Both the position numbers and the translations under genes were made by a program. A model generated the notes under the pieces. That model ran no database searches. It was not told the origin of the DNA and saw nothing but the letters and a program-made list of their open reading frames with translations. Shown piece after piece: positions 14,100-23,035 of a stretch of DNA of 64,000 bases (position 1 is its first letter; each line of letters opens with the position of its first letter). The stretch is taken from positions 1,178,001 through 1,242,000 of the forward strand of contig NC_089433.1 in assembly GCF_026210795.1 (NCBI RefSeq), written 5' to 3'. Source of the DNA: Rhizophagus irregularis (lineage: Eukaryota).

Positions 14100-14560
14100 T
14101 TAAAACAAGATAAAATATCAGCATACTTGATAGATATAAGTTATATTGACATATTATGTCATACTGTATGATGCAACATTACTTTAATATAGAAAAAATT
14201 AATGGACGTATATTAATAGTTGATTTTTCTTTTAGAAATAACAAAAAATTACGTTTAATATTATTTTATAATTTAGCTAATCATAGGACTGGTGAAGAGA
14301 TTAACAACAAGATTGATATGAATACACATGTGATTAAGCAGATTAAGAAAGCTAAATCTCAAAAAATGGAAATTATTTGTTGTGGTGATTTTAATTTACA
14401 ATATCGAAGGTTTAAAAAACGACAAGATAATAAACAGTCTATACCAAAAATGTTAAAAATTTTTCAAAAACTTGAGGATCTTAATTTATGGGATGTTCAT
14501 AAAGAAACTTATGATATGGATAATACAAAAGAAATAATGACTTATTGGTGCTTTATTTGA
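14100..14560 (+). mobile_element. LINE APE-type endonuclease fragment
   Basis: GRILIVDF...LRLILFY...IICCGDFN...L.D pattern of the EEP/APE endonuclease of non-LTR retrotransposons; truncated at ~14545. Confidence 0.7.
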
Positions 14561-15049: not shown

Positions 15050-16545
15050 AGAAAATGGAATTTGGCTTTTCTTGATTGATTTTAGCTAATTAAATTAAGT
15101 TTAGTAAATAGAAATCAATAAAATAAATAAAATAAAATATTAATAAATTACCTTTAAAAACTTCGCGTGCATTGGTAAAAGTTGATTGAAGTTCAATCGG
15201 TGTTAGTGCTTGCTTATCTGGTGTTGAAAAATGTAAAAAGGGTTCTAGAACTTCTAAAATTCATATTGTATATTTAGTATATTTAGTAAGGATGAAAATC
15301 AATTTAAAAATTAAAAATAAAACTCACCCGAGCCTTCCATTTAATCATTATCTATAAGAATGTTTATTAAGTTGTTTAACTTCACATTCTGCATTTTCTC
15401 TTTAGTTCTTTCATAGCTAGTAAATCCTGAATTTGATTTATGCTAGGCGGGTAATTGCCATAACTTCATTGTCACTAGTATCAAGTTCTTTCAATATTTC
15501 TACTAAACTTTTTCAGGCGCCGTGATTGCTGATATTTCGATTGCCAATATCAATACCACATTCTATTACAATTTCATGTAAAAAATTTTTTAATCACTTT
15601 TTACCAACATGAAACTTTTGAAACCAATGATTATAAATAATATAATCTATAAATAAATTAATTAATTAACTAATAAATGCCATATTACTGAAAAAATAGC
15701 ATAAAATGATAAAGTACATTGAACTCACCATCTTCAGCCACATATTCTCTTAAATAGAATTCTTTATCAGCATTACCTGGTCTTTTAGAAAAATATTTGT
15801 TATAAGTTTCCATTATCATTGGATGATATGGAATTCTTAATTTTTCATCATTAATGAGCCATTAATACCCCTTTGATTTGTTTTACTTTGAGGAATATTT
15901 ACATCAAAACCCTGACCATTAGCTCTAAACTTGAAATGAGAATATTGTAACGAATAGTGCTCACCACCTCTAAGAGCTAAGAATAATGCATTTAAAAAAG
16001 ACTTTTTTAACAATCCAGTGGGTATGTCAATGTTTAATGCTGGTGAATACAGTATTTTTTTACATTCTTCAACCACTCCTTGAACATTGGCCTTTCCTTG
16101 TTCTGCTACATGTTACATTTTACCATCTAATACATCATATAATATTGGAAATTAATTTTCTTGAAGTAAAATCCATTGATACTGTAATAGTAATGATAAA
16201 TCATTTAAATGTCAGTTCAATGCATGTATAGCATTAAGTATAGATCTAGCCTTGTATTCTTCACCAGAATTAGTCTTCATAACTGTTATGAAACTACAGG
16301 TTTGACTTTCTAACTCCTTTCTATAAGTAATATCTATGCTTTTACCAGTAAATCCAGCTTTTTCACAAAAGTTTTCAAATTGGTGAACCCAATTTTCTGT
16401 GGGTTTATCTATATTTACTACTCTTGGCTTATTTTTGAAATAATTTATTTCATCTTCTGTAGGTAAATAAAACTTGAATAGAAAATACTGTATTAGCAAA
16501 TTAATATAACAATATTTTGGTAGTAATAATAACATACTTTATCAT
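15050..16545 (-). mobile_element. Crypton-type tyrosine recombinase pseudogene (intron-containing)
   Basis: NALFLALRGGEHY (catalytic Arg region), SKTNQRG, downstream ISNH.. and EVMAIT...YER motifs at ~15400-15540; N-terminal SFITVMKTNSGEEYKARSI typical of Crypton/DUF3504-like proteins; frameshifts; GT-AG introns near 15100-15150, 15250-15328, 15648-15729. Confidence 0.75.
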
Positions 16546-17473: not shown

Positions 17474-20400
17474 TTAATTTTTATCTGTTTTAATATCTAA
17501 AAAATTAAATAAAAAAAATTAATTACACGTAAATAATTTGCAAATTACCTTTTTTGTATATATTACATTCCCAATGACCTCATATATTTATCATTCAAAT
17601 CTTCACTTATTAACATTTACTGTGAATCTTCACTTTCAAGAATTTTATTCAATTCTTTACTAGTAAAATTATGAAAACGACTTTTATAATATGCTTGTGG
17701 ATGAGATTTAGTAGTAAGATTATTATGCCCAATTGGTGCACTTATAAATTCCATAACATTGCATTTTAATTCAGCATCAATATCTTCAGCTTTCTTTCTA
17801 TAAGGAAGAAAAATCCACTTGATAATAATATTTAAAACTTCTTTAGAAGATGGCCTTTTTAATGGATCTTCATTCCAACACTTATTCATCAAATCTACAT
17901 AACATTGGGGAGTATTTTCAATAATTTCAGGACGTTTCCCTTTACAAATACTTAAACTAATTTGAAGATCATGTGCTCTATTATTAAATGGTGGTACTCC
18001 GGATGTAAATTCCTACATAATCATAGAAAAACTATATATATCACTAGCTGGAGTATAAGAATTGCCTTTTAAAACTTCAGGTGCCATAAATGGTATAACA
18101 CCATAAATATCATTTTTTTTCAAAGATGATTTTACAGGTTGACATAGTCTAAAATCACAAATATAAATTTTCTCCTTATTATCATCATTATGATTTAAAA
18201 TATTGCCATCATGAAAATCACAATGAATAAGATTTTGATTATGTATTGTATTAAGCCCAGAAATAATTTCATGCAACATATATAATTTTTGTTTCCAATC
18301 ATTTTTGATTATTTTTGGTAAATTTTCTCTCAAATTACCTTTGTTTGCATAATCCATTACAGCCATATAATTATCTGGACTTTTTGTAAATCCATAAAAA
18401 GAAATAATATCATATGAATCTAAACAACTTTCATGATATTTCCACTACAAAATAATAATAATATGTTGGTATAAATAAATCAATAAATTATAATTTAAAT
18501 TAAAAAATAAGTGTTATACTATCATACTTCATTTAAAAATTCATTTAAATTTTCATTAAAATTATTGCGACATTTAAGAATTACTTCTCTGTCTCCATCA
18601 TTATTTAACCAAATAGCTTTGTATATAGTACTATATTCTCCCTCATTAAGATATTCAACATTTCTAAAGTTATTATAGGAAATCCACTTTAATTTTTTTT
18701 CAATAATAAATTCATCTATAATTTTATTTCCACTTCTTCCAAATCTATAAATTTAAATAATTAAAATTAAAGTTTATTTATATTTAAATTTTATATAGAA
18801 TTTAAAATTAAAAAAATAACTAATATTAATACTTACTCTAAATTTAAGTAGGATTTAATAAATATTACCTTTTAGTTTTTGTATAATATATATATACACA
18901 AAATAACCTATAATTAATAACTTACCAACTAAAATAACAGATGTTTTTTAAATAAAGAATTCAGGTAACTATAGCTGAAATGAATATTATATAAATATAC
19001 AACAATAAAAATAATTAATAACTTACATGCTGTAATATTAAATTTATATTCTATAATAAATTACCAAATTAATTTTTTAAATAAAAAAAAATTCAATTAG
19101 TTTGAATTATGTAAATATTATGTAAATAATTAACATATATAACTTACGTTCTAAATAAATTACCAAATTAATTTTTTAAATAAAAAATTTAATTAGTTTG
19201 AATTATATGTAATTATGTAAATATGTGTAATAATAGAATTAAAGAAATAACTTATAACTTACGTTCTAAAATACACCGAATAATTTTTGAAATGAAGAAT
19301 TTAGTTAGTTTAAATTATATAATATTAGAATTAAATAAATAACTTATAACTCACGGCGGTCTAAAGTAAATTACCAAATAATTTTTTAAATAAAAAATTT
19401 AATTAGTTTAAATTATATGCAAATATTATATAAATATGTAATAATAAAATTAAATAACTTATAACTTACGTTCTAAAATAAATTACCAAATATTTTTTAA
19501 ATAAAGAATTTAGTTAGTCAATTATATGTAAATGTTATAACAGAATTAAATAAATAGCTTATAATTTACCAGCTAAAATAAATTACCAAACGGGAAGAAT
19601 TAATTTTTTTTAAAATAAAGAGTTTGGTTAGTTTAAATTATACGTGAATAGTTTATATAAGTATGTAATGAGTAAATTTATCATCTCCCATAGCGATCTC
19701 GTCTGGGCAAATTACGTAATACAAGCCAAATTAATAATGCAAGTGATATTTCGGGACGCAAATAGATATTTACAATGTTCCAGAATAGAGGGGTGTGACG
19801 CAGGTAACAAAAAGGTAGCACGTGCGACGAATAAATTATTTTACATGTAATAATAGATTAAATAAATAACTTTTAACTTAGTTGTATCATGATGATCGTG
19901 GGATATATAAAGTTTGCTTAGTAATCAAAATGAAACACGGATCCGGTTTTCCTCAGCTTTATATGGCAACAAAAAGTAGGCTTATAATAAATTACATCCT
20001 AAAATAAATCATCAAATAGTTAGTTATATGTGGCTAAATATGTAATAGTAAAATCAAATAAATAACTTATAACTTACCAGCTAAAATAAATTACCAAATA
20101 ATTTTTTAAACAAAAAGTTTTGTCATATTATATAAATATTTTTTTAAATAAAGAATTTAGTTACATGTAACACATAAATATATACTAATAATAGAATTAA
20201 ATAAATAAGAATATAGTTAGTTTAAATTATTAAATTATATAAATATATAATAATAAAAATAAATGACTTACAATCTATATTATTAAATAATTTTTTGAAT
20301 AAAGAATTTATTTAGTTTAAATTATACGTAAATATTATATAAATATGTAATAATAGAATCAATTATATAACTTATAGCTTACCAACTAAAAGGAATCACC

Positions 20401-21113
20401 AAATAATTTTTATTTAAAGAATATAGTTAGTTTCAATTATACAAATAATAGGAATATAGATGACATATAACTTACACCCTGTAGTATTATTAATTTTAAT
20501 TAGTTAGATGTAAAGTATATAATGTAAATTAAATATAATATATCACTTACAATCTAATCATTTAAATAAAGAGTATAATTAGTAAAATTATATAAAATAT
20601 TAAACGAGTATATATTATTATTTTTAAATATTGTAACTTACCATCTGTAATATAATTTATTATTGAATAGTTATTTAAGTAAAGAATTTAGTTATTAAAT
20701 ATTATGTAAAATAAAGTAAAGGATAATGATTTAAATAACTGATAACTTACTAACTATAGTATTATTAATTATTAAATGAATTATTTAGTTATAGGAATAT
20801 AACAAAAATGAGATACTTTTATTATTCAATTATAAGATAACGGACTGATAACCTATTAACTTACGAGCTAAATTATTTAAATCAATGTTAATATTACATT
20901 ATTATATAAATTATAATAATATTTAAATTATTTGCAAATAATTCTTATTTTAGTTAAATAAATATTTATATATTATATTTACCTTCAGATTCCTTGGTGC
21001 CACTTGAAACTTATTGCAATTTGATTGATTTGATTAAAAAATTTTAGAATAATTCAAATTTATATTAAATATTCATGTTATATGCTTTTACCTCTGTCGT
21101 TATTATGAGTCAT
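17474..21113 (-). pseudogene. TKL-type Ser/Thr/Tyr kinase gene with 5' micro-exon array; this copy appears disabled
   Basis: Exons: 21113-21092 (ATG), 21009-20983, 17 micro-exons, 18744-18528 (FGRSGNKIIDEFI..LKWISY..EFLNE), 18444-~17571 (WKYHE..HCDFHDGN..APEVL..SDIYSFSMIM*EF..CWNEDPLKRPS..HPQAYYKSR), 17496-17474 (DIKTDKN*). Lesions: TGG>TAG at 18013-18015, DFG-position reads DFR, TAA at 17617, last donor GT>GA at 17570. Confidence 0.88.
18745..21091 (-). repeat. Tandem array of ~70-120-bp intron/micro-exon units
   Basis: Recurrent plus-strand motif (A)ACTTAC-NNN-CT(A/G) = YAG|NNN|GTAAGT on minus; shared intron body AAATTACCAAATAATTTTTTAAATAAAGAATTTAGTTAGTTTAAATTAT with CTAAC/CTAAT branch-like motif on minus. 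Confidence 0.9.
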
Positions 21114-22429
21114 TGCTATATAATTATACCAAAACTCTTTTTTAACTGAAAAAGATAATGTAAATATTTGTTCTTCAATTCTTCAATTAAACGCCTTGGG
21201 TATATATTGTTGATCATGTATGACAAATGCGTGCCAAGCCTCATTGTAGCGCAGCAAAACTAAGACTCAGCCACAAATCATACTACACTTCTGATTGGTT
21301 GACCATTTGCACCTGATTTAATCACAAAAATTTAAACGCGGTTTATAATTCTCCCATTTTTACGCAGTAAATTTTAAGTCTTTCGCCCAAGGATTCTTTG
21401 ATCCGCCTTAGGTTGAATAGATTAAAGGACTTGGGACTTGGGATTAGAGTGTGTCAAAATACCAACCTATATTAGTTAATTTTGAGTTTCCTTTGTCACA
21501 TGTAATGAAAAAAGTTTTTTTACTTAATTTTTTGAACTTTAATGGTGTAAAAAAAAAATATTGAGATATTATTAATATTGCTAACAAAGTTGATTTACCA
21601 AAAAGAAAGAAGCTGAAAATTTTTTTATCTATGATAGATAGTTAATATGTTAGGAGTGACAGACAAAACTTTAACTGTTAAGTCAAGTCAACGTCTGCGT
21701 CACATTGCCACGTGACTGTTGTAGACTTTTTTAAAAAAAAAATTTAAATTTTTTTTTTTATGATACTAAACTCTTGATGTGAAATGCCTTGGATTTAAAC
21801 TTTTGACATGATTTACTTTTATATTATTGGACTTGATATACATATACTTGTGTGTTTCAACTTTCAAGTTTTAATTTTTTTTATGTACTATCATAACGAG
21901 AAAATAGAAATATCAGTTAACTTAGCCACTAATCTTCCTCTTACTTCATTATAAACAAATATAAATGCTAATAGAGAAAATGGTGATAATAATGTGGATT
22001 TAATTTAGTTAATAATGGTTTGAATAGATTAGAAGAATAGATAAGTAAAAATGTTAAGTTAAAGAGTAGGAAATGAAATTTATTTTTTTTTAATACATAA
22101 AATTAAATAACAATTTTTGAACTTGTTAAATATAATATTTATATTTTGATACATCAAGCCGTATGAATTTACGTCAACAACATAGCACAACAAGGCGCAA
22201 CCAACACCTCTACTGTAGTTATTTTGCATTCTAATCCAGTATAAATCCGCAAAATTCACATTGCTTATATATATCGAATTTATTATCTGGATTTGAATCC
22301 GAACACTTTTTTTTCACTTGAATGCAAAATGAACCAAAGTATATTTATAGTTAAAAAATAATGTTCGCCCAAATTCAAATCATTGGAAAAAATGAATAAA
22401 TTGACATTATAACACTAGAAAAAAATAGA

Positions 22430-23035
22430 ACGAAGGATGAGAGAGAAGGGAAAAGAGGAAATGGAAAGGACGAGAGAGGGAAAATGAAGGGGAATAAAGC
22501 GAGTGGAAAGGATAAGGGGATGAGAAAAAGGGAAAGGAATGAAGAGAGGGGGAAAGTGCGAGGGAAAGGGAAAAAGGAAAGGAAAGAACGAAAGAGAAGA
22601 AAAGAGAAGGGAATAGAGTACTAATGGAGCGAGGGGATGAGATGACGAGAGAGAGGGAAAGAAAGAGAGGAGGAAAAGTGGAATAGAACGAGGGAAAAGG
22701 ATGAGGAGACGAGAGAGAGGGAAAAGTGCGAGGGAAGGGAGGATGAATAAGAAGGAAAGGGAAGCGAGGGAAAAGAATGGGGGAAAAAGAATGGGAAAAG
22801 GGAAAGGAAAGGACGAGAGTGGGAAAGGGAAAGGGAAAAGAATGAGGGAAAGGAAGAGAGGGAGAAATGGAAGAGGAAAGAGCGAGGGAAAATAAACATA
22901 TACCACACATACCCACACCACCCACATACATACCTAAAATAAGATGTAAATAAATGTAAAGAAAAGAAACCCTAATAAAGAAAACCTAAAGAAAAAAGAG
23001 GACAGGAGAAGAGTCCTAATAAAGAGAAACCTAAT
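22430..23035 (+). repeat. Polypurine (GA-rich) low-complexity tract followed by CA-rich motif; member of dispersed repeat family
   Basis: ~460 bp of almost pure A/G, then CATACCCACACC..CCTAAAATAAGATGTAAA..GAAAAG; related segments at 37200-37710, 39190-39490 (inverted) and 61500-61640. Confidence 0.8.

Follow-up and report, generated by a model that had tools for sequence, protein, structure and literature searches.

The 5' part of a protein kinase gene of Rhizophagus irregularis was analysed in a 64,000-nt window of the genome (GCF_026210795.1, NC_089433.1:1,178,001-1,242,000); all coordinates are positions in this window, and the gene is read on the minus strand. Ahead of its kinase exons lies an array of 17 putative micro-exons, most of them 3 nt long, separated by short intron-like units. 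We lean towards reading the array as a run of working introns with codon-sized exons between them, built by tandem duplication of an intron-plus-codon cassette and supplying a variable, skippable linker, in a gene copy that is a young pseudogene. An initial annotation, made from the sequence, had proposed that the micro-exons encode the N-terminus of the kinase; its anatomy, its exons 1 and 2 and its view that the array does not behave as a satellite were upheld, and its arguments from phase, from exon lengths in multiples of three (3n), from gene prediction and from novelty did not stand.

Upstream of the first kinase exon (exon A), 19 exons and 19 introns had been proposed, and all of them read as proposed. 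Of the micro-exons, 15 are 3 nt long, ACCGCC has 6 nt and the last is a single A, and every one of the 17 stands, where the annotation had placed it, directly after an AG and directly before a GT (Table 1). Together with exons 1 and 2 they sum to 101 nt, and the joined product is, as had been claimed, free of stops and open into FGRSGNK of exon A. The intron lengths are, in order, 82, 115, 111, 106, 88, 72, 90, 108, 191 and 79 nt (introns 1-10) and 423, 97, 109, 89, 112, 118, 98, 88 and 92 nt (introns 11-19). The motif YAG-N3-GTRAG was found 13 times, each time on the minus strand within 18700-21200; the plus strand and the rest of the 64 kb contain no match. One match each with N1 and N6 spacing brought the strict junctions to 15 of 17, the other two having the weaker donors GTAATT and GTAAAT. 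All 15 GTRAGY hexamers on the minus strand of 18700-21200 were located 3 nt (13 hexamers), 6 nt (one) or 1 nt (one) after an AG. A 26-nt junction pattern, searched with at most two mismatches, gave 6 matches against 0 in 100 shuffles, these matches being copies of one repeat family and not 17 independent events.

The 72-118-nt units between the micro-exons align with each other and form one homologous intron family. The 16 alignable introns have in common GTAAGTTATAAGTT..., a box AAACTAAC/T, a T-rich tail and ...TTTGGTAATTTATTTTAG; Tandem Repeats Finder returned periods of 98-100 with 79-82% matches, and likeness between single units reaches 86-88%. The unit was not found elsewhere in the 64-kb window. 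Every unit carries signals of the working-intron type (GT in 17/17, GTAAGT-like donors, CTAA[CTA] branch-like boxes and T-rich YAG ends), in agreement with the earlier description of introns mostly of 72-118 nt with CTAAC- or CTAAT-like motifs. The units at the 5' end have diverged strongly from those at the 3' end, yet the splice signals (GTAAGT, CTAA box, YAG) are kept. Several triplets recur, AAC three times and CTG, ATT and TTG twice each, adjoining near-identical introns. Two introns, of 191 and 423 nt, are irregular (Table 1). The foreign insert in the longer one (19680-19995) is ~300 nt of 28% G+C, arranged as two blocks around a surviving piece of a unit, and no other copy of it was found in the window. 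In the unit before CAT, 21 nt are inserted between the usual acceptor (tatag, ending at 19051) and the donor, and an in-frame 24-nt alternative exon using that acceptor is possible at the CAT micro-exon.

A neutral intronic satellite would be expected to drift uniformly and to have the composition of its surroundings, and the array departs from both expectations. G or C made up 21 of the 52 micro-exon letters (40%) against 185 of the 1610 letters of the intron interiors (11.5%; binomial p 9.8e-8), and the kinase exons are 25.5% G+C. The micro-exon letters were the most variable columns of the unit, with consensus fractions of 0.40, 0.60 and 0.33 against a mean of 0.81. Conservation was higher in the nine columns of the 5' and 3' splice sites than in the other 82 well-occupied columns (Mann-Whitney p 4.4e-4), in an alignment whose units were delimited by the splice sites, by which this test is biased. 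No orphan donors or half-dead junctions were found in 18700-21200, lost junctions being without both sites, and the two changes of junction length, +3 and +21, are both multiples of three. The composition, column and orphan-donor tests thus back the earlier statement that the signals are kept while the 3 nt between them vary, unlike in a neutral satellite.

Exons 1 and 2 (MTHNNDR VSSGTKESE) match the N-termini of paralogues, including MAQSNDK VSSSTKEFE (P0081), VSSDTKELE (P0055) and MALNNDK VSGNIEFEG...KESK, and an M..NND[KR] start is common to paralogue models. This homology backs the AAG acceptor that had been assumed for exon 2, and exon 2 therefore ends in phase 1. The micro-exons are read in phase 1, each triplet being split between two codons, and their joined peptide is ALNDWFDSGSEHRQQPFE; the 1-nt exon is required for the shift from phase 1 to phase 2, and the translation of exon A begins FGRSGNKIIDEFI. 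The N-terminal leader of the family is an acidic 8-residue repeat (EFEGSGSE-like) of variable copy number (P0020, P0121, P0092 and others); in P0092 the same leader is fused to a DUF8211 protein.

The public proteins of the locus have three N-termini: P0001 reads through intron sequence, P0114 starts at FGRSGN, and P0113 (POG66058.1 / XP_025172924.1) chains micro-exons, reading MTHNNDR VAPRNLK LMIGLILNNNHL VIFIKSYLNLE FGRSGNK. The first 70 residues of P0113 were rebuilt from exon 1, a 20-nt exon 2 (start at 21002, AAG acceptor), 12 micro-exons (CTC ATG ATT GGT TTG ATT CTG AAC AAC AAC CAT TTG), a 32-nt exon and exon A. Gene predictors had been expected to miss the array, an expectation that this model contradicts by stringing together 12 of the 3-nt exons in a different frame. 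The homology of exon 2 argues that the frame of P0113 (phase 0) is wrong. Both P0001 and P0113 use the donor of the 1-nt exon, with 32 nt (18868-18837) or more read as exon. Because one locus has received three different public N-termini, the 5' ends of this large kinase family are probably mis-modelled.

Traces of the array extend to paralogues. Read-through translations of the same intron unit stand just before FGKSGN in P0018, P0071 and P0078, from three other loci; among 30 N-terminal pieces 5 matched the array, 2 of these 5 being the models of this locus itself. The I/L/G/M-rich chains before FGKSGN in P0054, P0055, P0067 and P0076 look like further micro-exon chains. The sequence ...SYLNLE before FGKSGN, which is the translated acceptor region plus the 1-nt exon, recurs in many paralogue models (P0013, P0053, P0061, P0023 and P0056), and the site tttag/A/gtaagt is therefore conserved across the family. 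Short jgi and ena protein matches were set aside as unspliced genomic fragments, reading on into the intron after LNEFLNE. The 26-nt junction pattern had one match in metagenome sequence, in a contig of 43% G+C without an array; viral contigs gave no match to P0119, and genome contigs searched with the kinase alignment gave two weak bacterial matches.

The downstream exons of the host gene encode a protein kinase domain (Pfam PF00069, Pkinase, 1.1e-25; PF07714, PK_Tyr_Ser-Thr, 4.3e-21; kinase exons B/C). The kinase belongs to a large paralogous family, and all relatives found were, by their source names, from Rhizophagus irregularis, R. diaphanus or R. clarus, which fits the very A+T-rich sequence of the window. 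On the minus strand the glycine loop reads GEYS where paralogues have GGFG (18640-18600), and DFR stands where they have DLG (about 18150). Both GEYS and DFR are also present in P0114, the orthologue from another isolate, and the lineage, judged by these motifs, may be a pseudokinase even when intact.

RNA reads of two poly-A RNA runs (X23 and X24) were aligned over 17500-19040, which covers the last three micro-exons. Almost all aligned reads were 90-95% alike to the locus and are from paralogues; reads at least 99% alike numbered 10/1097 in X23 and 0/1289 in X24. The sole RNA-confirmed intron at the locus is the 83-nt one between kinase exons A and B, the skip from 18444 to 18528 being seen in 28 X23 reads and 20 X24 reads, most of them from paralogues. 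The end of exon A, formerly placed at 18527, was corrected to 18528 since the next intron is 18527-18445. Read depth was 4-12 in exon A, dropped to 0-0.4 immediately upstream of 18748 and reached zero across 18800-19040. These data show that expressed paralogues use the 5' border of exon A as an exon boundary and that this allele is expressed barely or not at all, the drop at 18748 being uninformative on what is spliced onto exon A. A joint from 18709 to 18985 in an X3 contig, with non-canonical ends and a 22-nt side, was treated as a paralogue or repeat artefact.

Table 1. Coordinates of the exons, micro-exons and introns of the kinase locus in the 64,000-nt window
Feature	Position	Strand	Details
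Exon 1, 22 nt	21092-21113	minus	ATG start, MTHNNDR plus one base; donor GTAAAA; used by P0113
Exon 2, 27 nt	20983-21009	minus	VSSGTKESE; AAG acceptor; ends in phase 1
Whole array, 18 introns	18745-20982	minus	16 alignable introns of 72-118 nt
Micro-exon CTC	20865-20867	minus	tttag/CTC/gtaagt
Micro-exon TTA	20751-20753	minus	tatag/TTA/gtaagt; skipped by P0113
Micro-exon ATG	20642-20644	minus	AG and GT flanks
Micro-exon ATT	20551-20553	minus	AG and GT flanks
Micro-exon GGT	20476-20478	minus	AG and GT flanks
Micro-exon TTG	20383-20385	minus	donor GTAAGC
Micro-exon ATT	20272-20274	minus	AG and GT flanks
191-nt intron	20081-20271	minus	two units seemingly fused by deletion of a whole junction, around 20223-20186
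Micro-exon CTG	20078-20080	minus	AG and GT flanks
Micro-exon GAT	19996-19998	minus	weak donor GTAATT; skipped by P0113
423-nt intron	19573-19995	minus	holds foreign DNA of higher G+C and the start of a unit whose donor is dead (CTAAGT at 19881)
Micro-exon CTG	19570-19572	minus	weak donor GTAAAT
Micro-exon AAC	19470-19472	minus	AG and GT flanks
Micro-exon ACCGCC, 6 nt	19355-19360	minus	donor GTGAGT; skipped by P0113
Micro-exon AAC	19263-19265	minus	AG and GT flanks
Micro-exon AAC	19148-19150	minus	AG and GT flanks
Micro-exon CAT	19027-19029	minus	AG and GT flanks
Micro-exon TTG	18926-18928	minus	AG and GT flanks
1-nt exon A	18837	minus	tttag/A/gtaagt
Kinase exon A	18528-18744	minus	A/TTT GGA start; FGRSGNK...LNEFLNE; 100% to model P0001
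Intron between kinase exons A and B, 83 nt	18445-18527	minus	RNA-read joint 18444 to 18528
Kinase exons B/C	17617-18444	minus	Pkinase and PK_Tyr_Ser-Thr; in-frame TAG at 18015-18013

Under the favoured reading, each short intron of the 2.2-kb stretch would be removed separately by the spliceosome, and the mRNA of intact copies would retain at most 52 micro-exon bases, about 17 codons. The array would have grown by tandem duplication, through unequal crossing-over or slippage, of one intron with three exon bases, which fits with the repeated triplets beside near-identical introns. Each extra cassette would add one codon's worth to a low-complexity linker between the acidic leader and the kinase domain, and, because the gain is only codon-sized, would be tolerated as long as each unit keeps its splice signals. 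From what is generally known of the spliceosome, neighbouring introns would probably have to be excised in succession, since the signals on the two sides of a 3-nt exon can hardly be bound together. Skipping any combination of the 3n exons would preserve the frame, and variable isoforms would thus be possible, as reported for the nank genes of Tuber. It is conceivable, and we put it forward as a doubtful extension, that the cassettes are expandable, their copy number varying by unequal crossing-over between paralogues and strains and alternative skipping of their exons giving a wide range of linker isoforms; such genes would then form a diversity generator akin to the truffle nank genes, independent of them and in another gene family of an early-diverging phylum, and a natural system for studying how the spliceosome handles chained 3-nt and 1-nt exons.

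Besides the bias of the column test, a number of observations weigh against reading the array as separately spliced. None of the 16 exons of 3 or 6 nt affects the frame, and exon 2, the 1-nt exon and exon A read in frame by themselves (...ESE E FGRSGN). The phase match to the kinase exon, earlier offered as support, does fit the 101-nt sum; it tests only 22 + 27 + 1 nt and is silent on inclusion of the micro-exons because all the 3n exons are frame-neutral. In favour of separate splicing, the joined triplets are open both in the frame originally proposed and in phase 0, and random letters of the composition of the array had both open in 1.4% of trials. The absence of stops in the actual order is weak evidence, since permutations of the triplets are also stop-free in 2403/20000 cases (12%). 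Compared with paralogue N-termini, the joined micro-exon peptide did not rise above permuted orders (its best score was reached by 699/2000 of them, its sum of scores by 122/2000). From 0.032 indel events per letter, 1.5-2 of 16 spacers were expected to have changed and one had, by +3; the chance of no indel hit was 0.12-0.21, and the 3n bias in length, once cited as evidence, is not significant and was passed on with the repeat unit. In several paralogue models (for example P0020 and P0017) exon 2 and the kinase exon are bridged by only 7 nt (DGK or ARK), so that a long array is not constant across the family. The micro-exon chain of P0113, which is in another frame, may be a purely ab initio prediction. 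No spliced micro-exon read or contig was seen in the 17500-19040 stretch. The kinase exons are interrupted by an in-frame TAG (18015-18013), which replaces the conserved W of MIMWEF in relatives; two models of DAOM 197198 (P0001 and P0113) bypass it by an invented intron, and P0112 begins after it.

The main rival draws on several of these points. It holds that the array is one long intron containing a satellite, removed whole or leaving nothing, so that exon 2 is joined to the 1-nt exon and the kinase exon and AG-N3-GT is an inherited decoration; we regard it as possible and clearly less probable than separate splicing. The frame that is kept without any triplet, the descent of the junctions and of their spacing from one unit, the lack of a significant 3n bias, the 7-nt models P0020 and P0017 and the absence of RNA showing inclusion in the stretch covered by the reads all speak for it. 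Its interior, however, if neutral, would be expected to drift to the surrounding 11.5% G+C, and the spacers stand at 40%; the most diverged units keep GTAAGT, the CTAA box and YAG; 17 strong donors, each 72-118 nt from a strong acceptor, lie inside 2.2 kb; and the only intron at the locus that RNA confirms is 83 nt long. Fungi mostly recognise short introns as units, and if that is the case here the sites of the array would be hard for the spliceosome to ignore.

The state of this gene copy bears on a second rival. P0114 (PKC15776.1), in which exon A is identical, has W at the position of the TAG, and the stop is therefore real and young; at 18014 nearly all aligned RNA reads carry the W letter. 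This copy is most likely a young pseudogene of which the array is the still-intact leader, and because of the in-frame TAG and the near-absence of reads at least 99% alike the proposed protein is probably not made from this allele. We consider it unlikely that the whole array is a decaying relic, that is, a recent repeat expansion in a gene dead in this strain, with signal conservation due to the youth of the copies or to gene conversion. The TAG and the scarcity of near-identical reads suit a relic, as do the glycine loop GEYS and the DFG motif (DFR), which are degenerate relative to paralogues, the foreign DNA in one unit, the fusion of two others and the close likeness of several units. It is opposed by the W and the same exon A in P0114, which make the stop young; by the strong divergence between 5' and 3' units that have kept their signals; and by the presence of the unit family upstream of the kinase exon in at least three other paralogues, so that an array of this type predates the pseudogene.

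A third account, in which mobile, introner-like intron copies were inserted after every third base of an old continuous exon, would explain spacers that are far more variable and G+C-richer than the units and the faint likeness of FDSGSE in the joined peptide to FEGSGSE of paralogue leaders, and is nevertheless highly improbable: identical triplets recur by near-identical introns (AAC three times, CTG twice), so that the spacer was copied along with the unit, the peptide likeness to paralogue leaders does not exceed that of permuted orders, no unit copy lies outside the array in the window, and we know of no mechanism for insertion at a 3-nt period.

Among systems already known, the array is closest in form to that of the nank genes (NACHT-ANK NLR) of Tuber melanosporum, in which, according to three reports, arrays of 3-bp mini-exons are alternatively spliced (PMC9815663, PMC4986451, PMC13449251). 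The two have in common a lineage-expanded fungal family and many tandem 3-bp exons whose frame neutrality would allow splicing to vary the product; in the Rhizophagus array 15 of the 17 putative exons measure 3 nt, the others 6 and 1 nt, and all lie between canonical sites. They differ in lineage (Pezizomycetes versus Glomeromycotina) and in host gene, a NACHT-ANK NLR there and a kinase here, and the Rhizophagus array is unlike nank in that it would form an N-terminal linker, be read in phase 1 and end with a 1-nt exon. All three reports cite Iotti et al. 2012 (Fungal Biol 116:261) for the Tuber mini-exons. The initial annotation knew of no description of single-codon exon arrays on fungal kinases, and 3-bp mini-exon arrays are already in print for Tuber nank genes; on Rhizophagus micro-exons or intron arrays nothing was found in the literature searched. 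By its sequence the present finding probably joins this already described kind of codon-sized exon array.

Three other systems are more distant. In the micro-exon genes (MEGs) of Schistosoma, the comparison drawn in the initial annotation, most exons measure 6-36 bp and together they encode the greater part of a secreted protein. The likeness to MEGs lies in runs of symmetric micro-exons that can be skipped without loss of frame; unlike them, the present exons are of 3 nt, they form only a short linker of an intracellular kinase (52 nt of micro-exon, with over 1 kb of ordinary kinase exons downstream), and the introns form one family of copies. Recursive splicing, known from AG/GT ratchet points in long Drosophila and human introns, is similar in its stepwise removal by way of juxtaposed acceptor and donor. 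It differs in its zero spacing, which is not found here (YAG-N0-GTRAG had 0 matches in 18700-21200), and in the present array 3 nt would remain in the mRNA after every step. Intron gain by tandem duplication and the introner-like elements of fungi were reportedly described by Hellsten et al. 2011 and van der Burgt et al. 2012. With introners the array shares new introns that are copies of an existing one; unlike introners, the copies are local, head-to-tail and in one gene, and outside that gene they were found only in paralogues.

If spliced as read, the array would give fungi a second, independent example of codon-sized exon arrays, outside the phylum and the gene family of the Tuber nank genes, and would suggest that duplication of an intron-plus-codon cassette is a recurrent route to new introns and to linkers of variable length. 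Ordered intron removal would also be put to a demanding natural test by a chain of 3-nt exons with a 1-nt exon at its end. The importance of the finding is lower than was first estimated, as the kind is already described, a predictor found most of the array, and this copy is a pseudogene.

Several other features were observed in the window. The neighbouring gene at 15090-16538 (minus strand; models P0110, P0111 and P0115) is fused to the kinase in model P0114, and that part of it had no Pfam family match. Purine-rich tandem repeats of 41-45 nt occupy 22400-23000, with 43% G+C, a GC skew of 0.67 and an AT skew of 0.73, and contain long open frames in several phases. A plus-strand open frame of 136 residues at 14150-14560 looks by eye like the endonuclease part of a retrotransposon.

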